The notes under the pieces were generated by a model. The model was given only the letters and a program-made list of their open reading frames with translations, did no database searches and was not told where the DNA came from. From a virus (Duplodnaviria > Caudoviricetes): a DNA stretch of 64,000 nt. Both the position numbers and the translations under genes were made by a program. This document shows, in pieces, positions 1,053 through 50,133 of this stretch; position 1 is the stretch's first letter; each line of letters begins with the position of its first letter. The stretch covers positions 18,729 to 82,728 of the IMG/VR virus record IMGVR_UViG_2700989574_000004. One strand, 5' to 3'.

Positions 1053-3053
1053 TTATTTTCTGAGAGATTGTACGGCGTAGTTCAGCAGGGCACGTTTTGC
1101 CTGGTAAGCGCCTATAATTCTGGCTCCCCGTGCGTTGGGGTGCGGGTCTGCCGGGTTGGTAGTGGAGAACGCGTAGCCATTCTGGAATGCAAAGTTTGAG
1201 TTTCGTATCAGGTCGCGAACATTAAATCCGAGCATTCCGTATTTAGTCTGGATAGCGTCATAAACCGCATCGCGTTTAATGTGATTGTCGCTGTACCAGC
1301 GTTCCAGAAAAACGGGCGCCCCCGGCAGCGCATCCTGTACCCGCTCCACAATGGCGCTGTAACCGGCCATAAAATCTGTATCTGACAGCGCGTAATCATT
1401 CTCGCCGAGATTGATAAACACCAGGTCAGCCGCAAAATACTGCATCCAGTATTTCTGGTACGAGGCCGTCTGATTCAGGTGATATGCCGCTGTTGCGCCT
1501 CCTCGTGCGTAACGAATGACGCGAACTCCGCCAGCAGAGTTAATGCAGTTGAAGCTAATCAGCGCAGGGTACCCTGACTGATTTACCCCGGAAGCTGGCG
1601 GTTCAATCTCAAGTGAAAATCGTCCCGTTGATGGGCCAAGCCCTTCAACGCGCACTATCTGGATTTCTTCTGAGCCCTCCGGCTGGTTTGTGATGGTCGC
1701 AGTCTGCCACTCCCCGGAACCCGCTGGCCCTGTGGTGCCATCATCATTCCGGTCTGTTGCACGAAAACGAAACTGACTGGAGGTTCCGGCTGCGCCGGTG
1801 CCGGTGAATCCGACCTCGACAACATCGTGTTGATAAATAGGGTTGCCGCGCGACGCATCTTTTACCCGGAAAAACAGATTAGTGCGGCCTGACCACGGAA
1901 CTAACGCGAAACTCAATGGCGCGCATTTTTTGCCGTATGGCTGATTATCCACCCATCCGCTATAGACCCGCTCCATGTTCAGCAGGTCGCGGGAGGCTGT
2001 ATTGTCGTTTGAGGGGGCGAAGTAGCCGATACCGCCATGACCTAGCCGCGCCGCAAACTGGCTGTACATGGCATCAATAGCTCCTAATCCTCCAGTTCCG
2101 CCAGTCAGTGAATCCCCCGGCCCGCACAGAATAACCAGATACCCACCGGTGTTCGCCCGCGCCTGCATGGCAATCAAATAATCAAGCATCCCGACTTCCG
2201 GCAGTTCAGAAGTGGTCTGATTGCTGCCGGAACCCATTGTCAGCAGTTGATTATCTGAGCCCAGGATCACAAACGGAGAAGGCGCGTATCCACGTAAAAT
2301 AGAGACGCCAGCATCCTGAAGGGTGTCTGTTGTTAAAAATGACAGCATCTGATTATCCGGCCCCAGCAGATACAGAGGTTTATCGCCGTATCCGAATTTA
2401 ATATCCGAGCCAGCCTCTGCCATTCTGTCTCGACCAAAATCCAGTTTCTGGAAATCTTTACCGACAATTTCAAACTCGTCGTTACCATAGCCCCGAAAAA
2501 ATTTTACACCACCCAACGTCCAGTTTGATGGCATAGAACGTCCGGTGGGCTCTAAAACCCCTGCATTATTTATATATTCATCGGACAGTGTAAAATTAGA
2601 TGGATTCGTTATCCATAATCGAGCCTGGTTGAGAATAGTTTTTGCCGCTACATTTTTATCTGCCGCGTCTATTGTTGCGAATTCTCGGGTTGTTCCTGTT
2701 ATTGCTCCCTGACCAGGCATCATCGCTGAGATAATCGCAACACCCGCTTTATTCAGGTAATAGGTAAATGAGGTTAAATCATCCGGCCCATCAGCAACAC
2801 GAAAAATTTTCCCGTCAGGAGTATTAGCCAGTCCTGATATCGTCCCATCAGGATCCGATTCTGTTTTGTAAAATGTATACTCACGGTAATCACTGGCTGA
2901 TTCTATCTGGTCTTTGAGCCAACGAGTCCTGTTAGCCAGTTGTTCAGCCTGAATATTATCAGGACCGCCCCGACCACCCAGCACAGGAGTATCCTTCTCA
3001 AGTTGATAAATATCATCAACCCATGTTGCTTGCTCAGGTAATTTACTGGTCAT
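1053..3053 (-). CDS. Tail fibre/tailspike with SGNH (GDSL) esterase domain
   Basis: N-terminal W..DIYQLE..TPVLGG..GPDN.QA.QLANRT.WLK fibre-docking motif; SGNH blocks GDSLT, RGG, LGEND, DPHP. Confidence 0.85.
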   Translation of the reverse strand: MTSKLPEQATWVDDIYQLEKDTPVLGGRGGPDNIQAEQLANRTRWLKDQIESASDYREYTFYKTESDPDGTISGLANTPDGKIFRVADGPDDLTSFTYYLNKAGVAIISAMMPGQGAITGTTREFATIDAADKNVAAKTILNQARLWITNPSNFTLSDEYINNAGVLEPTGRSMPSNWTLGGVKFFRGYGNDEFEIVGKDFQKLDFGRDRMAEAGSDIKFGYGDKPLYLLGPDNQMLSFLTTDTLQDAGVSILRGYAPSPFVILGSDNQLLTMGSGSNQTTSELPEVGMLDYLIAMQARANTGGYLVILCGPGDSLTGGTGGLGAIDAMYSQFAARLGHGGIGYFAPSNDNTASRDLLNMERVYSGWVDNQPYGKKCAPLSFALVPWSGRTNLFFRVKDASRGNPIYQHDVVEVGFTGTGAAGTSSQFRFRATDRNDDGTTGPAGSGEWQTATITNQPEGSEEIQIVRVEGLGPSTGRFSLEIEPPASGVNQSGYPALISFNCINSAGGVRVIRYARGGATAAYHLNQTASYQKYWMQYFAADLVFINLGENDYALSDTDFMAGYSAIVERVQDALPGAPVFLERWYSDNHIKRDAVYDAIQTKYGMLGFNVRDLIRNSNFAFQNGYAFSTTNPADPHPNARGARIIGAYQAKRALLNYAVQSLRK

Positions 3054-3056
3054 TTT

Positions 3057-3850
3057 CTAACCTCTATAAGTATATCTGCCGTTGTGTCTAATAGAACCGT
3101 TGTGTGTGATGCCGTTTAGTCTGTCGAACAAAACAATGCGCCCAAGTCGCCCCAGAAACTCATCATTGGATTTCTTACCGTCATACAAAATATTAGCTGT
3201 TGTTTCCAGCCCACTGATTTCTGTCTCAGTGTTTATTAATGTGAGTGTAGCAATGGGGTCTAATGACACTCTGTAAATTTCGACTAAAACAGGACGATTA
3301 TTTTCAGCTAAATTAATGCCTTCATAACGTAAAGAAAACTCTTCGGTTATGTTTTCAGCCAACGATAAAACCGTATTACCTGGGTGTTGGTAATCAACAA
3401 TGACGGGTTGTTTTTCGGGAGTCGAAAGAAAGGTTATCGCCCCCCACAACCTGTCAACAACATAATCATCACCATTGACCATGTCTTCTATAGAAACACC
3501 CCACACATTTGGATTTCGTAGCGTAATTCTGTCTCCGGCTTCGATTCCTTCAGGTAATATGTCCTGTGCATACACGTCTGGTATCTGGGATGTATTCTTT
3601 GCTTCAAGAAGAACTTTTAAGTTTTCCACTGAAAATTCATGCCAGGTTGATGTTATTTTCCCTTCCAGCGCGGTGATATAACGCTGAGAGTTAACCAGTC
3701 GTCCACCGACCGACGCGCGGGATTTTTTCTCTTCAAACTCCAGTTCAATATTCAGCGCCGAAACATCACCAACCCAACGCCAGGACAAAGCCTGACCCGC
3801 CGAATTTCGGCGAGCCAGGTATAATTTCCCTTGTCCGTAGTAGTAGTCAC

Positions 3851-20842: not shown

Positions 20843-22627
20843 TCACCAAAGGCCACGGCCGCTGAAGTCCGGCTCGTCATCATCGTCAAAAAATGGATCA
20901 CCGCCCCGGAAAGCATCCTGACGGCGGGAAATGGGTTCCCAGGAATAGGAGCCAGACCCGCGAGAGACGGCTATCATCCAGAGAATATGCAGCGCTGAGA
21001 GGCCATCATAATGATGACCGGTTTGCGGTTCCGGCCAGGTCTCCAGCTCCGACAACAGCAGCGTCAGACCCGGATTAAACAAAATGGACGGGTTCAGGGT
21101 GTCATTGATGTAAGGCTCCAGCCCTTCAACACGCACCTCCAGCGGCACACTGGCAGTCAGCCCGACCAGAGGGAGTGCCACACCCTGACGCAGCGCGTTT
21201 TTGATAAACGTCGAGCGGGAGTGCTCATAGGCGTTATTGTTCTCAAAACCGATGGCCAGACAGTTGAACTGGCGCTGCATCGAGATCAAATCCGCCTCCA
21301 GCTTTGACGGTACGCGCCGTTTTATCTCGGCTTCCATCACATGCAGGCGGTTATGCTGTTTGTCCCAGCCGCCCACCAGAATTGCGGAGGGGTCGCTGGT
21401 CTCGCCTTTCCCCATTGACGGATCACAGGCACCAAAAATCAGCCAGTCGCGCCAGCGCTGGGTAAAGAGCTGGATATTAATAAAGGTGCGATCTTCGTCG
21501 GTGCGCGGGTCACCCTGCATTTCGGTGGCAAACGCTTTGCCGTTCTTTGCCCGCTGGCGCATCAGCCAGTAGAGCGTGCGAACGGCGGGCCATGAGGTCA
21601 CAGCGCCTTCATCCATCGTTGCCTGATGCGCCTGGTAAAACCGGTATGACGGCAGGTTGTCCTGCGGCAGGTCAAGTCCCAGCTCCGCTGCCTGCTCTTC
21701 GGCGCGTTTATCGTCGTTGAGCATCTTCTCCTGGCACTGCTCCCATAAATCCATATGGAGCGGCAGCGTCACGATGGCGCGGAAGTGGTGGACAACGTGT
21801 CCGATAGTCTTTTTCGCGCGGCTGATAGGGTCATCTTTATTCAGCACCGTCCCGACGCCCAGGTATTTCACCGAACCATCAGGCGGGCCCAGGTATTCGA
21901 TAGCCTTTGAAATCCAGTTCCAGCGGTTCTCACGCTCAGTCGGGGATTTTGCCTCGGCATCGGTAATCAGGTCATCGCCCAGCAGTAGCTTAGGACGGCT
22001 GGCACCGTGGAACGTCCCGCGAATCGCCTGTTCGGCACCAAATGCCTCCACCTTAACGCCTGTCAGCGTGGTGAACTCGCCGATCTTCCACTGGCCGCTA
22101 CGGCCGCAGACCTCCGGAAAATCCAGCATCAGCGCGGCATTCATGGTCAGCTCGGTTTTGACGACCTCAAGCAGCTTTGTCGGCAGTTTTGTTTCAGCGC
22201 CCAGCAGGATGATGTAGTCAATAAAAGGCGGACGTTCGCCGGTAAAGCCCAGCGCTTCGCGTACTTCATCACGCTGATGCAGTCCCTGCACGGCACACCA
22301 GACCGGGCCGACTTTGGTCAACAGGGATGACTTCGCCTCGCCACGCGGGGCAATCCACCATTCCACCGCGCCGCCCGGACGGGCCAGCAACTGGGGGTAA
22401 CGGGTGCAGAAGTGCGCATGAAACAGGGACTTTTCGCCCCGGATATGATGCGGGAAGTAGGTATAGGCGAAAAACTCAAAATCACCGCTCAGAACACGAC
22501 GGCGGCGCTCCCGGATAGCATCCGGGGAGGTGTCGAGACCGGAACTGTGAGCGCTGATATCGGCTCGCAGCGCGTGCCGCAGCATCGCCAGCTCTTTTAA
22601 AAAGTCGCGTCCGCTTAACTGGCTCAT
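20843..22627 (-). CDS. Terminase large subunit (inner phage)
   Basis: APRGEAKS Walker A-like, RPKLLLGDD Walker B, DPSMGK and HYDGLSA nuclease motifs. Confidence 0.92.
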   Translation of the reverse strand: MSQLSGRDFLKELAMLRHALRADISAHSSGLDTSPDAIRERRRRVLSGDFEFFAYTYFPHHIRGEKSLFHAHFCTRYPQLLARPGGAVEWWIAPRGEAKSSLLTKVGPVWCAVQGLHQRDEVREALGFTGERPPFIDYIILLGAETKLPTKLLEVVKTELTMNAALMLDFPEVCGRSGQWKIGEFTTLTGVKVEAFGAEQAIRGTFHGASRPKLLLGDDLITDAEAKSPTERENRWNWISKAIEYLGPPDGSVKYLGVGTVLNKDDPISRAKKTIGHVVHHFRAIVTLPLHMDLWEQCQEKMLNDDKRAEEQAAELGLDLPQDNLPSYRFYQAHQATMDEGAVTSWPAVRTLYWLMRQRAKNGKAFATEMQGDPRTDEDRTFINIQLFTQRWRDWLIFGACDPSMGKGETSDPSAILVGGWDKQHNRLHVMEAEIKRRVPSKLEADLISMQRQFNCLAIGFENNNAYEHSRSTFIKNALRQGVALPLVGLTASVPLEVRVEGLEPYINDTLNPSILFNPGLTLLLSELETWPEPQTGHHYDGLSALHILWMIAVSRGSGSYSWEPISRRQDAFRGGDPFFDDDDEPDFSGRGLW

Positions 22628-22658
22628 AGTGCCTCATTGCGATTGAGGCTCCGATAAA

Positions 22659-22667
22659 TGCTAAGAT
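22659..22667 (+). promoter_or_regulatory. Extended -10 promoter candidate for the antisense moron
   Basis: TGcTAAGAT ~45 nt upstream of ATG 22711, lying inside a 10-bp inverted repeat. Confidence 0.5.
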
Positions 22668-22710
22668 CCGTTTGCCACAACATCTCTTATAACTACCGGA
22701 GCCTCAGATT

Positions 22711-23217
22711 ATGGATATTACAGGTTTCACGTCTCTTTTTGATTCGGTCAAAGCCGTCAAAGATGTCGTCAAAGCTGCCTCAGATATGAAAACCAATGTC
22801 GCTATTAACGAAAAAGCGACTGAAATTTACAGCTATCTTAATGACGTCCAGGAAAAGCTAATGGCGCTGCAGATAGAGCACATGACGATGGCGCGCCTCA
22901 AAGACGATCTCGAACGTCAGGTTGTACAACTTACGGAGTGGAATCAGGATAAACAGCATTATGCGCTGACCAAACTTCCCTCTGGTGCCCTGGTGTACCA
23001 GCTCAAGCCTGCGTATCAGGGTGATGAGCCCGTACATCAACTGTGCCCCAATTGCTATCAAAAACAGGTTAAGTCGATTATTCAGTTTCATGGATACTCC
23101 CAGTGGCATTCGGTCTTAAAATGCCCTAACTGTTCTGCTGAGTTTTTCAATGAACGGCAGGATATGAAATGTTATTCAGTCGGAAGACGCAGTAGTTTTG
23201 ATACAGATGATTACTAA
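22711..23217 (+). CDS. Antisense moron: coiled-coil + CxxC..CxxC Zn-ribbon protein
   Basis: 168 aa, GGAG RBS, AT-richer than neighbours, CPNC twice; opposite strand to the late operon. Confidence 0.85.
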   Translation: MDITGFTSLFDSVKAVKDVVKAASDMKTNVAINEKATEIYSYLNDVQEKLMALQIEHMTMARLKDDLERQVVQLTEWNQDKQHYALTKLPSGALVYQLKPAYQGDEPVHQLCPNCYQKQVKSIIQFHGYSQWHSVLKCPNCSAEFFNERQDMKCYSVGRRSSFDTDDY

Positions 23218-23423
23218 TCATCAGATTCAACACTGGCCATATTTACTTCATCAACCAACTGAGCCAGACGCGCCCATGCGGTCTGGCCATAACCCTGCTC
23301 AGCAAAAACAATGCGCCCGTCATTCAGCAACACTTTGACCTGACGGTTACAGTCAATATGCATATCGTCGATGGTAGTGGCTGCTACATAGTGATCGCTT
23401 GCGAGCCGAATCATCCTAGCCAT
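23214..23423 (-). CDS. Small late protein coupled to terS, convergent with the moron
   Basis: 69 aa, GAGG RBS, start overlaps terS end, stop overlaps the moron stop by 4 bp. Confidence 0.7.
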   Translation of the reverse strand: MARMIRLASDHYVAATTIDDMHIDCNRQVKVLLNDGRIVFAEQGYGQTAWARLAQLVDEVNMASVESDD

Positions 23424-23919
23424 AAATCCTCTCTATCTCTTTTCCGAAGCCTTCCAGCAGATCGCCAAATGCCTGCAACTGCTGCGGGTGGTTGTCTTTG
23501 ATGAATGCAGCCAGCAGTTGCAGAACTTCCAGCGCGACGGCAAGGCGGGTCACTTCCGGCATAGCCCGCTTACTGCTGGCCACTGCTTTATTAAAGGCAT
23601 CGGACAGGCTGGCCAGCAGCTTTACGCGCTCGGCGGGCTCAATGGCCACATCGTCATAAGCCAGCTTGTCCATCGTGGTTTTGAACTGCACAACCAACCC
23701 GGTAAACATGGCCAGCGTCAGCTCCTCGATGCCGCCGCCAGCCAGCAGGCGAGCCCCCCGGAGCGTTTCCCAGTCATCACCCGCCGCTTTGCTGTCATTC
23801 TTCCAGCGCTGCGCCGTTCCGTAAGACACACCACACTGAACGGCCGCCACCTCAAGAGAAAGGCCGTCAAAAACATAAGCTCTGCGGACGCGGTCTCGCG
23901 TCTCTGGCGGGTATGCCAT
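23416..23919 (-). CDS. Terminase small subunit candidate (DUF1804)
   Basis: MAYPPETRDRVRRAYVF..LSLE.AA...GVSY.TA.RWK......GDDW HTH pattern. Confidence 0.8.
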   Translation of the reverse strand: MAYPPETRDRVRRAYVFDGLSLEVAAVQCGVSYGTAQRWKNDSKAAGDDWETLRGARLLAGGGIEELTLAMFTGLVVQFKTTMDKLAYDDVAIEPAERVKLLASLSDAFNKAVASSKRAMPEVTRLAVALEVLQLLAAFIKDNHPQQLQAFGDLLEGFGKEIERIYG

Positions 23920-30253: not shown

Positions 30254-30520
30254 ATGAAAAACGAATCGACTTATACAGACGAAGACATCATGAAATTAGA
30301 AGATGATGTTCTTGGCCTTAAAATAACCGTTCATGTATTAATCCAATTACTGGCAAAGAGTAATAATGAAAATTTAGACTTTCTCATTAAGAACTTAGGT
30401 TTTCAGGCTAATCATTTTGAAAATGACCATCCGGATTTTCCGGGTACAATTGAAACCCTTGACTCCTATTTCAGAGAAGCAGTAAAAATTTACAAAGATT
30501 CCTCTAAAATTAGTGAATAA
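30254..30520 (+). CDS. AT-rich antisense moron downstream of B
   Basis: 88-aa acidic helical protein, AGGTG RBS, overlaps the B 3' end by 11 bp. Confidence 0.75.
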   Translation: MKNESTYTDEDIMKLEDDVLGLKITVHVLIQLLAKSNNENLDFLIKNLGFQANHFENDHPDFPGTIETLDSYFREAVKIYKDSSKISE

Positions 30521-31403
30521 GCATTTCTGCAAATTTCCGAACAGCCCCGGCCGTCACCGGCACCTGATTCAGTGAGCTGTAGCGACTTACACCGCGAACC
30601 AGCTTAAACAGGCGGCGGGCGTTGCCCTTACTGGCACCAAACAAGGCATCGTTTACCGCCTCATCGCTGACGGTATCTAACATATTGGCCGCTATGATCT
30701 CGATATCCTCACGGGGCAGCGCGTCACCAATATTCAGGGCAAAGCCAACGCGGCTATAAAGTTGCTTATATTCCCCGCGCTTACCCTTCAGGTTGATAAT
30801 CAGGCGCGGCATACCCGCCAGCACGATGCCGATCCCCGCCTTATCGTGGATACGGCGCAGCGTCTCCAGCGCCCGGTACGGCAGGTTTTCCGCCTCATCG
30901 ATCATCAGCAAACGCCCAGAGTCACGCAGGGCATCAATGCAGGCTTCGCTGAGCTGATGCATGTTACCGCTGCGGGACAATCCCAGCAGGGTACAAAGCT
31001 CTTCCAGTACGGTTCTGGCGGTGTAGCCGGGGTCGGCTTCAATCAGCAGTGCATCACGATGTTCACGGGCATACTGGCGTAACACCATTGTTTTACCTAG
31101 CCCGGCATCGCCATAAATCACATTAATATCGCAGTCCATCTGAGCCAGGTTAATAACCTCCAGCGCCCGGCTTGCCGTGACTGTATTAACGAATGAAATA
31201 TTGATGCGGGCCGCTTTCTCTTTTTCGCGCTCACGGGTAATAAAGCCTGATACCAGTTCATCAATATTTTTTACATCGCCCGGATATTTACCCTGGATAT
31301 ACTGGCTAATAAGGGTTGAGCTTTTACCGATAGCACGGGCCACCTGAGTCTGGCTGTATCCCTTACGGGCCATCAGTTCTGTCAGTTCAGTTTTAATTGT
31401 CAT
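30510..31403 (-). CDS. MuB-like AAA+ transposition ATPase
   Basis: N-terminal HTH, GDAGLGKT Walker A, IDEAE Walker B, QLYSRVG. Confidence 0.95.
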   Translation of the reverse strand: MTIKTELTELMARKGYSQTQVARAIGKSSTLISQYIQGKYPGDVKNIDELVSGFITREREKEKAARINISFVNTVTASRALEVINLAQMDCDINVIYGDAGLGKTMVLRQYAREHRDALLIEADPGYTARTVLEELCTLLGLSRSGNMHQLSEACIDALRDSGRLLMIDEAENLPYRALETLRRIHDKAGIGIVLAGMPRLIINLKGKRGEYKQLYSRVGFALNIGDALPREDIEIIAANMLDTVSDEAVNDALFGASKGNARRLFKLVRGVSRYSSLNQVPVTAGAVRKFAEMLIH

Positions 31404-31413
31404 AACCTTTCCT

Positions 31414-33465
31414 CTACTTATGGTTTCCGGCTTTTTTCAGATGTTCTTCGCGATCTGTTGCAAGGAAGAAATATTCTGGTTCAGGCTCATCAACGATTTT
31501 CGGTATAAAACTGCCAAAGTCGGGTAATTCGTTGACCACACTACCAGGCAGCAGGCCACGCGCTTCGGCTTCCACTTCCTCACGTTTTTTGTCAAGCAAT
31601 CCAAGTCGACGTTTGGTACGTTGTTTCATCGCGTCCTGCATTTTGCTGACCGGGATCGCATCACGTTTATTGCCGTTCCAGACCGCATGACATACATACG
31701 TTCCATCCATGCGGCGGATAATGACTTCGCTGGCGTCGTGAATATCATAGGCAACGCGCACTTCTTCTTTATCGACATTAATAAGGTCTTGCGAGAAGTA
31801 GTCGTTATTCATGAGGCTAATCCAGCCCTGCTGAGCGACACGTACTGTTTCGGCCATGAGCACCTCACGCAGTTCAACATCAGTCAGATACTCAATTTCA
31901 TCACCTTCCTGCTCCAGTACCATTTTTCGGTATGCTGCTGGCGTCATGTGACGGCCATTACGTTTGGGCAGTTCGCTGTGCTCATGCTCGTTGTTATAGG
32001 CGTCCACCTCTTCAGCAATCACGTCCAGCAACCGTTGCCATGTAGGAAGCTTGCTCAGATCTTTTTTCTGCCTGGCTGTCAGTTCACGGCCTGCAGCTTC
32101 TGCACGTATAGCGGACTGAATGGCTCGATTCGTCATACGCACGTTTTCGCGATCAGCACCACGACCATTAAACGTTTCAAAACGTTGTCCCAGCCGGTGA
32201 GGGATGACGGCGTTGAGTCGCTCAATAAGGCCACGAGACTGCGGACGGCCAGGAATACTGGTCATATGGGTAATTCCCATGCGAGGGAATATACCGGTCA
32301 GTTTGTCATCAAACGTTTTGTTAGCCTCACCGCCACCATTATCGGAGTAGACGAATAACGGTTTGCCGTGGTGCTGCATGCCGTAACGGTAAGCATCCAG
32401 TACCGCATCCATACTTTCCGACAGTCGTAGACTCCAGCCCACGCAATAGCGGGTACGTCCATCCAGAACAAGGGTTAACTCCGGCGTAAATGGCTGGCCA
32501 TGAACGGGGTGCCGCGCGACGAGATCCAGTGATTTACCATCCGAAACCCAGCAACCATTGACAGGCATCGTCGACCAGTCTCGCTTCTGATAAGTCTCAT
32601 AGGCCAGTTTTGCCGACCCGCTGACGCGGCCAAGTGCCTTCTCACGACGTGGCAGTTTGACCATTGCCCGACGAACGGCGTCATATGACGGGCAGGCGTC
32701 GAGCTTTTCAAGCTGACCGGCATAAACTACCTGCCATTGTTTACAGAACCCGCGATAGGCTTCGCGCATCGACGGGCCATTAAGGCTACGCCAGTGCGCC
32801 AGGAAGTCTGGTAGCCAGGAGATCTGCTCCGGCTTCTTCGCTTTTAGATGACCGGGTGCCAGCATGGCCAGACGTTCACCACCGGATTTAGTGGACTCAT
32901 AGACACTGAGCCATTCCTGCAGGCTGCGGGTGCCAACACCAGTGCGGCTTCCTTTGCGTGCGTTGGCCAGCTCGACAGCCTTCATCAGGTGCTCAGGCAA
33001 CGTACCGTTGCGTGATGCATTGGAGACATAGTTAACCGCAGCCGTGCGGGACATACCGGCATCACGGAGTTTTTCAACCTCCATTGCCAGCGCTGCACGG
33101 GCATCAGCGATGAGCTTTTGTTTCTCGGTCAGCGCACTGACTTCACGATCCAGCAGGGCCGGGCACTGGCGCATCAGGTTCAGTTCAGTGCGTGGCTTGC
33201 TCACGCCGCATTTGCTGGCGCGAGCGGGCGTGGTATTGGTTTTTGTGGCCAGAACCTGCTGATAGATTTTTTCCCTGAGAACGGTTTGGGCTTCATCAGG
33301 TAAACTATCAACATGATAGGCGCATCCCCCACCAACACCTTGTCTCTTTTGAGCCTGCCAACCTTCTTTTTTCGCACGCTCACGAATGTTTCTTGAGGTG
33401 CTGGGAAGGCCTGGCAACCGCATTTGCGCAAGTTCTTCGGCGCTAAAGTGAGTTTTTATACTCAT
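31414..33465 (-). CDS. MuA-like DDE transposase
   Basis: Mu-type N-terminal HTH (LPGLPST...A.KEGW), WVSDGK, YSDNGGG, GLIERLN. Confidence 0.96.
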   Translation of the reverse strand: MSIKTHFSAEELAQMRLPGLPSTSRNIRERAKKEGWQAQKRQGVGGGCAYHVDSLPDEAQTVLREKIYQQVLATKTNTTPARASKCGVSKPRTELNLMRQCPALLDREVSALTEKQKLIADARAALAMEVEKLRDAGMSRTAAVNYVSNASRNGTLPEHLMKAVELANARKGSRTGVGTRSLQEWLSVYESTKSGGERLAMLAPGHLKAKKPEQISWLPDFLAHWRSLNGPSMREAYRGFCKQWQVVYAGQLEKLDACPSYDAVRRAMVKLPRREKALGRVSGSAKLAYETYQKRDWSTMPVNGCWVSDGKSLDLVARHPVHGQPFTPELTLVLDGRTRYCVGWSLRLSESMDAVLDAYRYGMQHHGKPLFVYSDNGGGEANKTFDDKLTGIFPRMGITHMTSIPGRPQSRGLIERLNAVIPHRLGQRFETFNGRGADRENVRMTNRAIQSAIRAEAAGRELTARQKKDLSKLPTWQRLLDVIAEEVDAYNNEHEHSELPKRNGRHMTPAAYRKMVLEQEGDEIEYLTDVELREVLMAETVRVAQQGWISLMNNDYFSQDLINVDKEEVRVAYDIHDASEVIIRRMDGTYVCHAVWNGNKRDAIPVSKMQDAMKQRTKRRLGLLDKKREEVEAEARGLLPGSVVNELPDFGSFIPKIVDEPEPEYFFLATDREEHLKKAGNHK

Positions 33466-33810: not shown

Positions 33811-33969
33811 CAACTCGGATAAGTTGATTATTTTCATTATCCGAGATGCAGATCCAACTTATTTAAGTTTGATTTCTATTATTCACATTAAAAACAGTTA
33901 GTTATATATAACTCAGATGAGGTTTTTTTATGGCGTCAAATCATCCAGGTAAGGAAAATCAACTCGGAT
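33811..33969. promoter_or_regulatory. Operator region between divergent ner and repressor
   Basis: Repeated core CTCRGAT at 33811-20, 33837-47 (inverted), 33910-18 and 33960-69. Confidence 0.55.
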
Positions 33970-34664
33970 GCGAAGGTTTTCATTCTCGTTTGCGCACACT
34001 CTTAGATAAATTCAGGAGTGTTAACGCGTTTGCGACTGCCGCAGGGATATCCCCTTCAGGGCTTAACAGGTTGCTTGACGGCGGCTATCCAACGCTCCCG
34101 ATACTTGTTGCATTGGCAAAAGCTGGCGACGTTTCGGTTGAATGGCTGTCTACAGGCGGTGAACAGGTGAGTGCTTCTCTTCCTACAAAGATGGATAGCA
34201 CTTCCATGACAGTGACCGACGTTAAAGGGAATGAGGTAGACCTTGATGAATTCGTTTTTGTTCCTCGCTACAACATAGCTGCAGCGGCAGGTTTTGGGGC
34301 TTGGAATGATGATGAAACGCCGATGTTTACTGTTTCATTTAGGAGATATTGGGTTACCAATCACCTGAAGGCCGATCCTTCAAAGCTATCTGTGATTAGT
34401 GTCTATGGTGATTCAATGGAAGGCGTCTTAAATGACAAAGACATCATATTGATAAATCATGATGATAGGGAACCTAGAGAGGGTATCTATGTCTTGCGGA
34501 TTGATGGCCAACTCATTGTTAAACGTGTCCAGAGACTTCCTGGCTCCATTCTGCGTGTCACAAGTACCAACCCCGCCTATGAACCTTTCTCGGTTGATAT
34601 GAATAACGTATTGGGGGATTTTGCAGTTGTCGGCAAAGTGGTTTGGTATGGAAGGGTTGTTTAA
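33930..34664 (+). CDS. Repressor: XRE HTH + S24 autopeptidase
   Basis: HTH, AAAG cleavage-site region, GDSME and VKR catalytic motifs. Confidence 0.92.
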   Translation: MASNHPGKENQLGCEGFHSRLRTLLDKFRSVNAFATAAGISPSGLNRLLDGGYPTLPILVALAKAGDVSVEWLSTGGEQVSASLPTKMDSTSMTVTDVKGNEVDLDEFVFVPRYNIAAAAGFGAWNDDETPMFTVSFRRYWVTNHLKADPSKLSVISVYGDSMEGVLNDKDIILINHDDREPREGIYVLRIDGQLIVKRVQRLPGSILRVTSTNPAYEPFSVDMNNVLGDFAVVGKVVWYGRVV

Positions 34665-36547: not shown

Positions 36548-36709
36548 ATGAAGAGCTTAAAAATTGTATCCATAGGCGGGAGGCTGGTGGCGATTGAGTA
36601 TGACGGTTTGTCATGTGCATCGCTGCCAGTTTCAGAGCTCCCCATCAATGGTTCAGCTTTAACTCTCCCTCAATTCATGCTCGAGGATGTGTATGCCACC
36701 ACGCGCTAA
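36548..36709 (+). CDS. 53-aa hypothetical, partial paralogue of 37052..37324
   Basis: MKSLKIVSIGGRLVAIEYDGLS...; below the ORF-track cutoff, overlaps the HNH start. Confidence 0.5.
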   Translation: MKSLKIVSIGGRLVAIEYDGLSCASLPVSELPINGSALTLPQFMLEDVYATTR

Positions 36710-37055
36710 ACGACCTTGCCGGCACAGAGGATGCGCGACTGTGACCAATGATGTCGGTGGATACTGTGAGATGCATCGGCAGCAACACGCTGGTGATGGC
36801 TGGCGTAACTACCAGCCCGGAAAAACTCGGCAGGAACGTGGTTATGGTCGACCGTGGGAAATTAAACGGGCCCGTATCATGAAGAGGGATAAATACCTTT
36901 GTCAGAACTGCAGGCGAGACGGTATTGCCACGAAAGCCTCAAGTGTCGACCACATCATTCCTAAAGCTCATGGCGGTACCGATGATGACTTTAATCTGGA
37001 GTCATTGTGCTGGACCTGCCACAGCAAGAAAACAGCAACAGAGAGAACCCGATGA
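36693..37055 (+). CDS. Packaging-associated HNH endonuclease (HK97 gp74-like)
   Basis: RGYG..W, RDKYLCQNC, VDHIIPKAHGGTD...NLESLCWTCH. Confidence 0.92.
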   Translation: MPPRAKRPCRHRGCATVTNDVGGYCEMHRQQHAGDGWRNYQPGKTRQERGYGRPWEIKRARIMKRDKYLCQNCRRDGIATKASSVDHIIPKAHGGTDDDFNLESLCWTCHSKKTATERTR

Positions 37056-37999: not shown

Positions 38000-38434
38000 A
38001 TGGCCGGAGGAATTCGATCGTCCGGTGGTGGCCGAAAACCCACTTTACCCACCGGGCAAAAAAGCAAATTAACACGTATTGCGCCTCCCGCTGAGTTAAT
38101 GGGGGAGGCGGCAATAAGAATGTGGAAGACGCAAAGCAAAATACTCATCGACCGAGGGGTGTTTGAGCTGGAGGACGCACCTTTGTTGCTGGCTTACTGC
38201 AATGCTTTTCATCTGATGCTCGAAGCCGAAAAAATGCTGGCCAGCGGACTGACCTCAGAAAGTGAAATGGGGGGCTTGAAAAAACACCCTGCAGTTAATG
38301 TCCGCAATGACTCGGTTTCCCAGCTTGCCCGCCTCGGCTCTCTGTTGGGGTTAGATCCGCTCAGTCGTCTTCGCATGACCAGCGGACAAAAGGATCCGGA
38401 CGATGACGGGAATGAATTCGATGAGTTTGACTGA
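38000..38434 (+). CDS. Terminase small subunit, P27 family
   Basis: L.AYC, KKHPAV, LGLDPLSR.R. Confidence 0.92.
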   Translation: MAGGIRSSGGGRKPTLPTGQKSKLTRIAPPAELMGEAAIRMWKTQSKILIDRGVFELEDAPLLLAYCNAFHLMLEAEKMLASGLTSESEMGGLKKHPAVNVRNDSVSQLARLGSLLGLDPLSRLRMTSGQKDPDDDGNEFDEFD

Positions 38435-40155
38435 TGGCTACCTATCCGAACGTCAATGCGGCGAACCAGTATGCGCGGGATATCGTTGGCGGGAAGATTC
38501 TGGCGTGTCAGTTAACGGTACTTGCCTGTCAGCGACATCTGGACGACCTCGAACGAGCAAAGGATCCCCACTGGCCCTACCGCTTCGATAAAAACAAAGC
38601 AGAACGATTTCTTCGTTTTGCCCAGAAAATGCCTCATACCTCAGGGGAATGGGCCCGGCGTAAACTCCGGATTGAATTTGAAGCCTGGCAGAAGTTCGCT
38701 CTTGGCGTACCGTTTGGATGGGTACACAAGAAGACAGGCCTGCGTCGTTTCTCTGAAATCTATATCGAGGTGCCCAGGAAGAACGGGAAATCCGCTATTG
38801 CCGCTGCTGTAGGAAATTATATGTTTTGTGCAGATGGCGAGCATGGTGCAGAAGTCTATTGCGGCGCCACGACTGAAAAACAGGCATGGAAGGTATTTTC
38901 TCCGGCGCTGCAAATGGTGAAAAAGCTGCCGGCATTGCGGCAAAAATTCTCGATAAAACCTTGGGCAAAAAAAATGACGCGCCCTGACGGTTCGGTTTTT
39001 GCGCCTGTGATCGGTGACCCGGGGGATGGTGATTCGCCATCATGCGCCATCATTGATGAATATCACGAACATACTACTGATGCGCTTTACACCACCATGA
39101 CCACCGGTATGGGGGCTCGTGAACAACCGATGACACTGATCATCACCACCGCCGGCTATGACATTACATCCCCTTGCTATGAAAAGCGTACCCAGGTTGT
39201 CGAGATCCTGCGGAGAACCCGTAATGGCGAGGAAAATGAAACCATATTTGGGCTGATTTATGGCCTTGATGACGATGATGACTGGACGACTCCTGAGGCA
39301 TTAATCAAGGCAAACCCCAACTATGGCATTTCGGTAAAAGCAGATTTTCTCCGGGCTAAACAATTATTGGGTATGTCGACGCCCGGGCAGACAAACAAGA
39401 TTCTGACCAAGCATTTCAATCGCTGGGTAAGCGCAAAATCAGCTTATTACGACCTGAGAAAATGGATGGATGCAGCCGATAAAAACCTTAAGTTGTCAGA
39501 TTTTGAAGGGGAAGAATGCTGGCTGGGTATAGATCTGGCCTCGAAAGTTGACCTCAATGCCGTGGTTCCAGTTTTTCGTCGTGAAATAGACGGAATAACA
39601 CATTTTTACTGTGTTTCTCCTCTGTTCTGGGCACCAGAAGAAACCATTTACTCTCAGGAGACCGCGCTGAAAAGTACCGCAGAACGTTATCAGTCCTTTG
39701 TCCGGCAGGGTAAGTTGATCCCGACCGATGGTGGCGAAGTTGATTACAGGCTGATATTTGAAACGATCCTGAAGCTGCGGAATACCGTAAAAATTGCCCA
39801 ATGCCCCATTGATCCTTATGGCGCGACTTCATTACGTCACATGCTTGAGGAAGAGGGGCTTGAGCCTGTCGAGATAAGACAAAATTTTACCCATATGAGT
39901 GATCCTATGAGAGAGATTGAGGCTGCGCTCATCTCGGGGAGATTCCATCATGACGGACACCCTGTCATGAACTGGTGTATTTCCAATATCGTCGGCCAGT
40001 ACCTTCCCGGAAGTGACGATATTGTGCGTCCCGGGAAAGAAGGGCGGCAGAACAAGATAGATGGTGCGGTTGGTTTAATGATGGGGCTGGGGCGCGCCAT
40101 GCTTAACAGTTCAGTGATGACATCCGTATACGATGAGGAAGATATAGCATGCTAA
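38434..40155 (+). CDS. Terminase large subunit
   Basis: VPRKNGKS, IIDEYHEH, ITTAG, GIDLAS, KIDGAV. Confidence 0.96.
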   Translation: MATYPNVNAANQYARDIVGGKILACQLTVLACQRHLDDLERAKDPHWPYRFDKNKAERFLRFAQKMPHTSGEWARRKLRIEFEAWQKFALGVPFGWVHKKTGLRRFSEIYIEVPRKNGKSAIAAAVGNYMFCADGEHGAEVYCGATTEKQAWKVFSPALQMVKKLPALRQKFSIKPWAKKMTRPDGSVFAPVIGDPGDGDSPSCAIIDEYHEHTTDALYTTMTTGMGAREQPMTLIITTAGYDITSPCYEKRTQVVEILRRTRNGEENETIFGLIYGLDDDDDWTTPEALIKANPNYGISVKADFLRAKQLLGMSTPGQTNKILTKHFNRWVSAKSAYYDLRKWMDAADKNLKLSDFEGEECWLGIDLASKVDLNAVVPVFRREIDGITHFYCVSPLFWAPEETIYSQETALKSTAERYQSFVRQGKLIPTDGGEVDYRLIFETILKLRNTVKIAQCPIDPYGATSLRHMLEEEGLEPVEIRQNFTHMSDPMREIEAALISGRFHHDGHPVMNWCISNIVGQYLPGSDDIVRPGKEGRQNKIDGAVGLMMGLGRAMLNSSVMTSVYDEEDIAC

Positions 40156-46544: not shown

Positions 46545-46777
46545 GTGACTCGCCCTGGCTGGAGCTTATCTTCTGGCTGGCCGACCGCTGGGGCGAGCCT
46601 GACCCATCCAAAATTGCCGCATTGCCGGCAAACACGCTGTACCACTGGCGAGCCTACTTCCTGAAACAGGGCATTTTCCGCCGTCCTGGCGATGAAAACG
46701 CGCCACCTACCGAAACCACACCTGCGCCATCCCGGGTCGATGATGAATGCGCGGCAGTCATGAGGGCGTTAATGTAA
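46535..46777 (+). CDS. gpGT -1 frameshift extension
   Basis: -1 frame LSDSPWLELIFWLADRWGEPDP...RALM* open to TAA overlapping the TMP ATG. Confidence 0.8.
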   Translation, partial: KKLSDSPWLELIFWLADRWGEPDPSKIAALPANTLYHWRAYFLKQGIFRRPGDENAPPTETTPAPSRVDDECAAVMRALM

Positions 46778-49700
46778 TGGCAGACGTCGCATCTTTAGCG
46801 GTCGGGCTGCACCTGAACGCAGCCAGTTTTAAATCCCAGCTGCTGGGAGCGTATGGCGATGCGGAGAACCAGTCACGACGGTTTAACCGTAATGCCCAGG
46901 CGGACGCGAAAAAGACGGAGGACGCCTATAAGAAGGTCGGTCTGTCGATATCCGGGATGGCCAGCCGGCTAGCGGGGCTGGCAGGAGCCGGCCTTTCCAT
47001 CGGCACGATCGTCACCACGTCCAGACAATATGGACAGGCATTATCAGACCTGCAGGCCATCACCGGTGCGACTGCAGCTGAAATGAAAGCGCTGGATCTG
47101 GCTGCGCAGGAAATGGGGCGCACGACAGAGTACAGCGCCAGCCAGGCCGCCGAAGCGTTAAAGCTGATGGCGTCGGCTAAACCGGAGCTTTTAAAAACGT
47201 CCGATGGACTGCAGAAGGCTACGAACAGCGCGCTTATCCTGGCGCAGGCCGCCGGCACAACGCTGCCCGATGCGACCAGAACGCTGGCGCTCTCCTTAAA
47301 CCAGTACGGGGCGAGCACGCAGGAAGCGGATCGTTATATCAACGTGCTGGCCGCCGGCGCGAAATACGGGTCGTCGGAGATTGTGGATACAGCGGCCGCC
47401 ATTAAAAATGGTGGCGTTGCAGCCGCACAGGCCGGCGTTGGTTTTGAGCAGCTGAATGCCGCGATTCAGGTGCTGGCAGAGCGTGAAATTAAAGGCGGTG
47501 AAGCCGGCACGGCGCTGCGTAACGTCATCCTGAACCTGGAAAAGGGCACGGACAAGAGCCTCAAGCCGTCCGTGGTTGGTCTCAGCCAGGCGCTGACCAC
47601 TCTTTCCGGGAAAAATCTCTCCACGGCCCAGGCCGTAAAACTGTTTGGCGTGGAGAACCTGAATGCGGCGTCTATCCTGGTCCAGAACCGTTCAAAGCTT
47701 GATGAGCTGACCGCTTCCCTGACCGGTACCAAAACGGCGCATGAGCAGGCATCCATCAGGGTTAACAACCTGAACGGCGATTTGCTGGGGCTGAGCAGTG
47801 CGTTTGAAGGGATGGTCATTAAGATCGGCCAGAGCAGTAACGGGCCACTCCGCAGCGGGATTCAGGTTGCCACGGAGGCACTGAACAGCCTGGCAGACAA
47901 TTTCAACACCGTCTCCAGCGTGGCGCTTTACAGCCTGATCCCCGTGTTATCCACGAAACTGACTGCAGGGCTGCGGGAGAATATCGCGGCCTGGCGGGAA
48001 AGCCAGGCGGCGGTAAAAGCGCGGGCGCAGGCTGATGCGGATATTGCCCGCAAAACGCTGGATTCGACAGCGGCCATCCTGAAACAGAACGACGCTGAGT
48101 TTGGCCACTACCGGCAGATGGAGCGGACGGCTAAACAGTACGGGATGAATATCAGTTACCAGGATGAGTTTACCCGCCTCATCCGACAGGAAACTGAGCA
48201 AACCAATCTGGCCAGCCAGGCGAAACTGAAACTGGCAGCGGCAAACCGGCAATTGTCGATATCAGCCCGTGCGGCCTCCGTTGCGGTGGGCCTGGCAAGA
48301 GGCGCCCTGGCTTTTGTTGGTGGTCCGGTTGGCGCGGCGACGCTGGCTGGCTCTGCATTACTGTATTTCCATCAACAGGCAAAAGAAGCCCGGCAATCGG
48401 CCATTGATTTAAAAGATGCCGTAGTGGAAACCAGTGAAGCGCTGATGCGCCTCTCGCTTAACCAGTTAAATGTGAAGCAGTTCGACCTGGAGGATAAGTA
48501 CGAAAACCAGGTCGTGCAGCGTAACCAGCTGATAAAAGAGATTCAGGATGCCGACAGTCGTATCGACAGCCTGAAAGGGTTTGACCCCTTCGGCCAGCTG
48601 GAAGGGGTGACAAAAGACCAGACGCGGGCGCGGGCGGATCTCGATAGCGTTAACGAGGGACTCCGCAAAACCGAGGAAAACATTAAGCGTGTCAGTGATG
48701 CAAAAACACTGGCTCAGCTGGGTTTATCGGGAAAAATAACCTCCCTTACGGACGATCTGAAAGGAGCGTTAAGCACGCCCCCCAAAGAGACCGGAGATGG
48801 AAATCCCTGGGGCGGCGATGGCGGTACCGGCACGGGGAAAGGCAGTAAGTCCCAGGTCGACCAGTTCAAAACGCTGCGGCAGCAAATTGAAGAAGCCCAT
48901 GCATCCAGCCTGGCCAGAATTAACCTGCAGGAAAAGGACAGCAACAGGGAGCTCCAGGAAGCGGCGAAGAAAAATGGCGCCAGTGATGCTGACCTGCAGC
49001 GCGCGCTGTTAATGAATGCAGAGAACTACCAGAAACAGCGACTGGATCTGGCCGCGCAGTATTCCCCCGCCCAGGAAACTCTGCGAAAAGAGCAGGAAGC
49101 CAGCCGGGACCTGGCTGAGCTTTTCAAAGCCCGCCTTCTTGATGAAAAAGAGTACCAGGCCGCACGAATAACGCTGGCCAGAGATACTGCGAAAGAGCTG
49201 CTGCAGGCGCATGCCGATGAAATCGCTGCGCCGGCACTGGATATCGCCGGCGAAGTTGATCCACTGGTCTCGCTGCGCAATCAGCTTGCGCAGCGGCAGG
49301 CATTGCTGCAGGCGTACTACCAGGGCAGCGCGATCAGCAAAGAACAGTACGAAATGCTGATGCAGAAGGCGACGAAAGAATCCGCCGATGCGCAGTATCA
49401 GACGTCACTGGAGTTATACCGATCACAGGGAGAATTCCAGAGCCTGGCCGTCGGGTTATTTGAAACGGCCCATGAGCGCTCAAGCAACTTCCTGACGAGC
49501 ATGCTGACGCGGACGAGAAGCTTTAAGGAGAACATGGCTGACCTGTTTTCCTCGCTCACGCAGTCGGTCATAAAAAACCTCGTTGATATGGCTGCTCAGG
49601 CGCTGGTCACCAGTTCCGTCATGCAAACCATTATGGGCGTGGTGGGAGCTGGAGTGAGTATTGCAAGTGGTGTTTCTGGAGCGGCTGATGTCGGCACAGG

Positions 49701-50133
49701 TACTGCGATTCAGAATGCAGGTAAAAACTTTAACTTTCAAATACCGGGTTATGCCAAAGGCGGTGTCTTCGATTCTCCTTCATTAAGTGCCTACAGCAAC
49801 CAGGTCTACGACTCTCCGCAGTTCTTCGCTTTCGCAAAAGGGGCCGGCGTATTTGGCGAGGCCGGGCCGGAGGCCATCATGCCGCTGACGCGTGCCGGCG
49901 ATGGTTCGCTGGGTGTACGCGCTGTCGGTGGTGTTCAGAACGCCGGCGCGTCGGAAGGGCCAAAAGTCTATATCACGATTGAAGGCGGAAACATCTCAAC
50001 GCAGGCGCCGTCTGGTTTTGAGCAGTTTGGTCAGCAGATCGGCTCGTTTGTGGAGAAAAAATACAGGGAGCTGATGGCGCAGGATATGCGCCCTGGCGGG
50101 ATGGTCTGGAATGCAGTTAAAGGGCAACGCTAA
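46777..50133 (+). CDS. Tape measure protein (outer phage)
   Basis: TP901-like core, lambda-type C-terminus GEAGPEAIMPL.R..DG.LGV. Confidence 0.93.
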   Translation: MADVASLAVGLHLNAASFKSQLLGAYGDAENQSRRFNRNAQADAKKTEDAYKKVGLSISGMASRLAGLAGAGLSIGTIVTTSRQYGQALSDLQAITGATAAEMKALDLAAQEMGRTTEYSASQAAEALKLMASAKPELLKTSDGLQKATNSALILAQAAGTTLPDATRTLALSLNQYGASTQEADRYINVLAAGAKYGSSEIVDTAAAIKNGGVAAAQAGVGFEQLNAAIQVLAEREIKGGEAGTALRNVILNLEKGTDKSLKPSVVGLSQALTTLSGKNLSTAQAVKLFGVENLNAASILVQNRSKLDELTASLTGTKTAHEQASIRVNNLNGDLLGLSSAFEGMVIKIGQSSNGPLRSGIQVATEALNSLADNFNTVSSVALYSLIPVLSTKLTAGLRENIAAWRESQAAVKARAQADADIARKTLDSTAAILKQNDAEFGHYRQMERTAKQYGMNISYQDEFTRLIRQETEQTNLASQAKLKLAAANRQLSISARAASVAVGLARGALAFVGGPVGAATLAGSALLYFHQQAKEARQSAIDLKDAVVETSEALMRLSLNQLNVKQFDLEDKYENQVVQRNQLIKEIQDADSRIDSLKGFDPFGQLEGVTKDQTRARADLDSVNEGLRKTEENIKRVSDAKTLAQLGLSGKITSLTDDLKGALSTPPKETGDGNPWGGDGGTGTGKGSKSQVDQFKTLRQQIEEAHASSLARINLQEKDSNRELQEAAKKNGASDADLQRALLMNAENYQKQRLDLAAQYSPAQETLRKEQEASRDLAELFKARLLDEKEYQAARITLARDTAKELLQAHADEIAAPALDIAGEVDPLVSLRNQLAQRQALLQAYYQGSAISKEQYEMLMQKATKESADAQYQTSLELYRSQGEFQSLAVGLFETAHERSSNFLTSMLTRTRSFKENMADLFSSLTQSVIKNLVDMAAQALVTSSVMQTIMGVVGAGVSIASGVSGAADVGTGTAIQNAGKNFNFQIPGYAKGGVFDSPSLSAYSNQVYDSPQFFAFAKGAGVFGEAGPEAIMPLTRAGDGSLGVRAVGGVQNAGASEGPKVYITIEGGNISTQAPSGFEQFGQQIGSFVEKKYRELMAQDMRPGGMVWNAVKGQR

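Follow-up and report, generated by a model that had tools for sequence, protein, structure and literature searches.

A probable Rip1-family defense cassette between the terminase genes of a Mu-like prophage, beside a small late gene of its phage group

[quoted passage not shown] The reading that we favor, and consider highly probable, is that of a Rip1-family defense moron cassette in the late operon of the prophage, in which case the 69-aa gene that it faces is a resident small late gene. An earlier note on this DNA had viewed the antisense Zn-ribbon gene as a defense gene of the type expressed in lysogens, a view that agrees well with the homology to Rip1 in both sequence and fold. Its suggestion that the locus is a “possibly new system” has to be given up, as the Rip1 family has already been described and its structure solved (PDB 9oox; review PMC13434031).

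The window, by which we mean the whole 64,000-nt stretch of DNA that was analyzed, was drawn from an 82.7-kb provirus record. It includes a Mu-like prophage whose late operon runs on the minus strand and contains the inter-terminase locus; the local order on that strand is terS, the 69-aa ORF, terL and then portal-like and Mu F-like ORFs. The features of this prophage are as follows:

33930-34664: S24 repressor, upstream of the late operon
31414-33465: Mu-type transposase A, upstream of the late operon
30510-31403: B ATPase, upstream of the late operon
23416-23919, minus strand: terS, small terminase/DUF1804 protein of 167 aa (Pfam PF08822 (DUF1804), E 1e-53; phrog_756)
23214-23423, minus strand: small late gene of 69 aa, probably resident in the phage group (ORF; phrog_19649, E 1.7e-33)
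22711-23217, plus strand: Rip1-family gene of 168 aa, by homology (ORF; phrog_1244, a PHROGs family without a named function, E 5.6e-44)
22636-23235, boundaries approximate: putative inserted AT-rich cassette of about 600 bp, promoter plus Rip1 gene (DNA alignment A3 and G+C content)
22698-22701, plus strand: candidate ribosome-binding site of the Rip1 gene, GGAG, 9 nt before the ATG (read by eye)
22659-22667, plus strand: candidate extended -10, TGcTAAGAT (read by eye; conserved in all three cassette-bearing sequences of A3)
22644-22656 and 22694-22706: arms of an inverted repeat round the promoter, 13 nt each, 92% complementary and 37 nt apart
20843-22627, minus strand: terL, large terminase of 594 aa (phrog_38, E 2e-90)

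The 168-aa and 69-aa ORFs converge with a 4-bp overlap at 23214-23217 that includes both stop codons. At its other end the 69-aa gene overlaps terS by 8 nt, its ATG (23423-23421) and the terS stop TAG (23418-23416) sharing one ATGGCTAG. These two overlaps, the ORFs themselves and two CPNC motifs in the 168-aa protein (C112/C115 and C138/C141) had all been described correctly in the earlier note. Read by eye, both convergent stop codons fall within a palindrome at 23206-23222 (17 nt: two arms of 8 nt and a single base at the center), which encodes acidic C-terminal residues in each of the two proteins.

The 168-aa protein belongs to a large family: HMMER searching of 1.84 billion cluster representatives identified 2426 relatives at E<=0.001, of which 871 remained at E<=1e-10, and with few exceptions these proteins are 145-200 aa long. 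When the query was aligned with 67 of the 150 relatives listed (alignment A1, 68 sequences), C112, C115, C138 and C141 were invariant in 68/68 sequences and W77, Y84, L86, P107, H109 and Q125 were near-invariant. Comparison of the A1 profile with the PDB gave a sole strong entry, 9oox, titled [quoted passage not shown], with its Rip1 chain 9oox_L matched over profile positions 4-149 (E 2.7e-37, 130.8 bits); the single 168-aa sequence also matched 9oox with an E value of 8.6e-18. The four invariant Cys align with Cys of 9oox, and we consider the four Cys of the C-terminal domain to be a likely defining feature of the Rip1 family. In Pfam, the matches to the 168-aa protein (zf-DNA_Pol, Lar_restr_allev and others) were all far under the cut-offs, and PADLOC 2023 had no model for it, its best match being LmuB at 14 bits.

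The predicted structure points in the same direction. An AlphaFold2 model of the 168-aa protein made with A1 (pLDDT 91.7) has helices at residues 3-25 and 30-83 followed by a beta-rich C-terminal domain with the four Cys, and the “coiled coil plus Zn ribbon” of the earlier note fits this model of two helices and a four-Cys beta domain. Foldseek searching of the PDB with the model gave just two matches at E<=0.001, both of them chains of 9oox (9oox_M: E 3.9e-8, TM 0.86 by target length, rmsd 1.8 A over 122 columns). The hydrophobic moment of helix 3-25 is 0.36 versus a shuffle mean of 0.18, a value reached by 3% of 2000 shuffles, indicating modest amphipathicity, whereas helix 30-83 is no different from its shuffles in this respect (26% reach its moment).

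What is already known of Rip1 bears directly on how such a gene should be viewed. The primary description of Rip1 is reportedly that of Patel et al., Nature 651:1060, 2026. For the mechanism of the characterized Rip1, “ring interacting pore 1”, we draw on passages of a review (PMC13434031) and of a meeting report (PMC12908700). [quoted passage not shown] The same passages place Rip1 relatives across the Proteobacteria, where they are common, chiefly in prophages, and place the prophage Rip1 of Pseudomonas aeruginosa between terminase genes (PMC13434031). A passage of another article names Rip1 and TerI as defenses that sense the small terminase (PMC13601566).

The solved HK446 Rip1 (9oox; HK446_037) is homologous to the 168-aa protein in sequence and fold and is of similar length (164 versus 168 aa), with four conserved Cys in both, although the identity between them is only 27% in the structural alignment (28% for the tblastn match). 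The characterized Rip1 and the window gene are both prophage-borne and antisense to a phage operon; in HK446 the gene adjoins gene N in the pL operon. Closer homologs are encoded by Pseudomonas phages D3112 (orf25), DMS3, JBD30 (gp30), MP38 and others (E 2e-20 to 4e-23), those of JBD30 and D3112 being about 34-35% identical to the 168-aa protein, and the homologs of JBD30, D3112, DMS3 and others lie antisense between terS and terL, a position that the window gene matches. It differs from the HK446 and Pseudomonas Rip1 genes in host range, being enterobacterial, with its nearest relatives in Klebsiella and Serratia records. In a passage that is older than the Rip1 work, JBD30 gp30 is said to be a protein that “blocks phage genome injection”, with citation of Tsao 2018 (PMC11445458). 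Literature searches with the names JBD30 gp30, DMS3-30 and D3112 orf25 gave nothing beyond an unrelated preprint.

The DNA of the locus suggests that the Rip1 gene came as a unit with its own leader. Alignment with cassette-free relatives (A3) places the cassette next to the ribosome-binding site of terL on one side and the final few codons of the 69-aa gene on the other; apart from these codons, the 69-aa gene lies outside it. The G+C content is 0.44-0.48 over 22600-23300 versus 0.53-0.63 in terL and 0.54-0.63 in terS. A promoter/leader of about 45 bp, including TGcTAAGAT, is kept in all three cassette-bearing sequences of A3 and is absent from the two cassette-free ones; in one of the aligned contigs (L021) a different cargo gene lies behind the same promoter/leader as in the Rip1 cassettes, and it would seem that a single promoter/leader module serves different cargo genes. 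Does the Rip1 gene have a promoter of its own? The earlier note had claimed an extended -10 and a ribosome-binding site for it, and this claim stands in part: both motifs are visible by eye and the leader is conserved, but a consensus promoter scan of 22300-23800 that required both hexamers called no promoters, and the promoter is therefore plausible only. Four sequencing runs gave four short contigs, from one wastewater run of uncertain kind, and no reads in three raw RNA runs, and are no test of expression. The inverted repeat brackets the -10 motif, its second arm (22694-22706) covers the Rip1 ribosome-binding site, and both arms keep their core in two other cassette-bearing contigs (L019 and L021). 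On the late transcript this repeat would fold as a hairpin just upstream of the terL ribosome-binding site.

Variation among very close relatives is consistent with such a unit. We defined a close clade of 12 distinct elements with a terS at least 92% identical to that of the window, comprising the window, VW-6B, Klebsiella phage Kp4852-3 and nine IMG/VR contigs. Of these, 11 had a readable slot between the terminase genes; it held Rip1 in four, a different insert in one and the small gene only in six. As far as can be judged from these alignments, the Rip1 gene is a swappable putative defense-moron cassette in the late operon, and the cassette slot between terS and terL in Mu-like prophages appears to extend to enterobacterial phages besides those of Pseudomonas.

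A variety of other genes was seen in the slots of related phages. In L008 (2724-3148; contig of L021 and L031) a different cassette behind the same promoter/leader consists of an antisense ORF of 62-79 aa that converges on a 73-aa late-strand ORF, the latter with a start that overlaps the resident small gene's stop. The layout is like that of Tab/anti-Tab, a defense pair of the Pseudomonas phage JBD26, and neither ORF resembles Tab or anti-Tab. There are two antisense morons in L009 (2730-4274; contig of L032), a 153-aa phrog_6315 protein with, by eye, a membrane-spanning look, and Rip1, with a 68-aa late-strand ORF between them. That ORF had looked by eye like a diverged copy of the 69-aa gene and was rejected as such, as BLASTP found nothing and the family profile scored it at only 6 bits (E 0.0016 with three sequences searched). 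The 153-aa protein also has a 198-aa relative in L034, encoded between the small gene and terS. Other antisense genes included one for a protein of 256-263 aa with N-terminal Cys pairs and a DUF4145 match (E 5.4e-12) in L051 (4064-4834), L078 (4530-5321) and L089 (4530-5321), a family of 162-187 aa with no Pfam match in L075 (2382-2870), L079, L085 and L092, and a 166-aa ORF in L048 (3998-4498).

How might the window cassette have arisen and how might it act? We propose that the cassette, AT-rich, about 600 bp long and equipped with a promoter of its own, entered the gap between the resident small late gene and terL in antisense orientation. The lysogen would make Rip1, which, if the second-hand accounts of the characterized protein apply here, would be harmless alone. 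Upon superinfection, a ring-shaped late protein of the incoming phage, its small terminase or portal, would be bound around by the C-terminal four-Cys domains, and the N-terminal amphipathic helices would then form a membrane pore, such that the cell would therefore die before progeny were completed. The 69-aa gene would not be part of the cassette, its family being found after a DUF1804-type terS in the majority of related Mu-like phages, and the 4 bp that it shares with the convergent Rip1 gene would simply reflect the site at which the cassette came in.

A question arising from this proposal is what keeps a prophage with Rip1 from setting off its own pore when it is induced, and whether the small protein coupled to terS has a possible part in this. 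The earlier note had assigned such a part to the 69-aa protein, with the Tab/anti-Tab pair as its precedent, and its account of that pair is accurate, as checked in passages of PMC10884400. As described there for JBD26, Tab occupies the same terS-terL slot as an antisense defense gene with its own promoter, and anti-Tab is a small late gene set on the terS stop. That the window has the same layout, a small late gene on the terS stop converging on an antisense gene with its own candidate promoter, is one reason to see in the 69-aa protein a dedicated factor against Rip1, expressed from the late operon and binding and neutralizing Rip1 during the lytic cycle of the prophage itself as anti-Tab does for Tab. 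Another is that Rip1 is, in the review passages, triggered by small-terminase or portal rings, and a phage carrying it would plausibly need self-protection (PMC13434031). We nevertheless think a dedicated anti-Rip1 role improbable. The proteins themselves are of other families, Tab and anti-Tab being phrog_14530 and phrog_13614 versus phrog_1244 and phrog_19649 here, and BLASTP gave no alignment of the 69-aa protein with anti-Tab. The activities also differ, as Tab is described as blocking tail assembly via the tape-measure protein (PMC10884400) whereas the characterized Rip1 is a ring-triggered pore. The term “anti-Rip1” did not occur in the papers listed by a literature search of a kind that would miss a paper with that term alone.

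Further evidence against a dedicated antidote comes from how the two genes are distributed. In IMG/VR, at least 482 relatives were identified with the help of a terS alignment (A4); the best 80 of them were taken, and we counted the 79 loci, those of sampled relatives and the window, that have both terS and terL (L016 and L040, with no terL, were left out). An iterated 69-aa family profile, run on the late-strand ORFs of the slot, detected the family in 55 of these 79 Mu-like loci from the best 80 of at least 482 relatives. The Rip1 profile found three, all with the small gene; 52 loci had the small gene without Rip1 and 24 had neither. Collapsing near-duplicates left the 69-aa family in 47 of 66 groups and Rip1 in three of 66. 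Conversely, the Rip1 genes of JBD30 and HK446 have no neighbor of the 69-aa type, and in JBD30 Rip1 directly abuts terS with no small gene. The earlier note had asked for a co-occurrence analysis and had named independent assortment beforehand as the outcome that speaks against the pair; since 52 of the 55 family loci lack Rip1 and Rip1 stands alone in JBD30 and HK446, independent assortment is therefore what was found. In the close clade, likewise, the 69-aa gene is present in 12/12 elements, whatever the slot contains, versus Rip1 in 4/11. Nor are the alleles of the small gene grouped by the presence of Rip1: the small protein of VW-6B, which has Rip1, is 91% identical to that of a phage without it (L020) and 78-86% identical to those of the other Rip1 carriers. 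Taken with the position of the 69-aa gene outside the cassette, the independent assortment and the solitary Rip1 genes of JBD30 and HK446 leave the anti-Rip1 role therefore unsupported. Tab homologs, by comparison, are reported in the passages of PMC10884400 to be always accompanied by anti-Tab; on the sequences compared, the window locus shares the architecture of Tab/anti-Tab, is not homologous to it and fails its “always paired” feature.

Two observations speak for some protection of the carrier phage all the same. Every Rip1 carrier in the close clade also has the 69-aa gene, which leaves room for a protective role. Also, Rip1 has been gained or lost among phages with a 100% identical terS, which favors an anti-Rip1 factor to the extent that terS itself did not adapt. 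Either a terS of the window type is no trigger of Rip1, or something already present protects. The TerI/anti-TerI system of Listeria phi10403S provides a further comparison, by description: in the portions of its report that we draw on (bioRxiv 10.1101/2025.02.27.640495) it is a prophage defense directed at the packaging machinery, with self-immunity proteins on induction, although it comes from another host and type of phage and TerI blocks DNA packaging without a pore.

Whatever its role, the 69-aa gene is a real gene. It is under purifying selection, with a median dN/dS of 0.13 (29 usable of 36 pairs), and its attachment to terS is widely kept: in 47 of the 55 loci the start of the family match is no more than 20 nt away from the end of terS, the remaining eight having an insert between the small gene and terS, and in four of five other loci examined there is a ATGGCTGA start/stop overlap with terS in which the ATG lies seven bases before the terS end, including in phages with only about 50% terS identity. 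We think that it most likely has a terS-linked late function, for example as a packaging or assembly accessory. At the protein level it evolves about four times faster than its neighbors (dN 0.16 versus 0.04 for terS and terL). Identity between alleles ranges from 59 to 91% among phages with a terS identity of 92-100% (window, L003 and L014-L022), and from 69 to 84% among those in which terS identity is 100%; in the window and Kp4852-3 terS is identical and terL 99.7% identical, yet the small proteins are 77% identical. Such fast evolution would also suit an arms-race gene, as an anti-Rip1 factor might be.

Could the family instead shield the terS ring in general from ring- or terminase-sensing defenses encoded by the host and by other prophages, Rip1 included, and be kept whether or not the phage has a Rip1 of its own? 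We give this only a slim chance, even though it would explain how Rip1 cassettes enter and leave the slot with no change in terS, and why the small gene diverges far faster than the genes beside it. The closeness to terS in 47 of 55 members and the quick divergence beside an identical terS fit it well. Defenses that sense the small terminase exist, Rip1 and TerI being those named in the passage cited above (PMC13601566), and the adjoining slot, with its varied antisense morons, looks like a general hotspot for candidate defense genes in related Mu-like phages. However, purifying selection fits an ordinary accessory protein equally well, and the fold model of the 69-aa protein, five strands and a C-terminal helix, is moderate (pLDDT 82 for the best model and 57-59 for the other four) with no significant structural match: Foldseek against the PDB and BFVD gave none at E<=0.001, and the best VIA-align score, a Z of 6.0 to PH-like domains, is too low to indicate anything beyond a common arrangement. 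Sequence searches were similarly sparse, with no Pfam family for the 69-aa protein or for five diverse relatives, no relative in a profile search of genome contigs with the 69-aa alignment, and unnamed clusters plus a weak FlbD lead (score 0.82) in an Atlas search. We therefore retain the reading of a Rip1-family cassette set beside a resident small late gene.

That reading has a consequence for annotation, in that the window gene and its homolog in VW-6B should be named Rip1-family defense proteins. The VW-6B gene (MF975721.1, L001; positions 3001-3507), whose product is 84% identical to the 168-aa protein, was deposited as “ATP-dependent chaperone ClpB”, a label that nothing we found supports. 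VW-6B is labeled as infecting Pseudomonas fluorescens, yet in terS and terL it shares 92-93% identity with the enterobacterial-type prophage of the window.

The window continues beyond the Mu-like prophage into a second, unrelated one (36687-64000), with the following features:

36687-37055: HNH endonuclease
38434-40155: large terminase
46747-50133: ORF of 1128 aa
53373-62435: gpJ-like tail-tip protein of 3020 aa
running past the window end: tail-fiber ORF with an S74 chaperone domain
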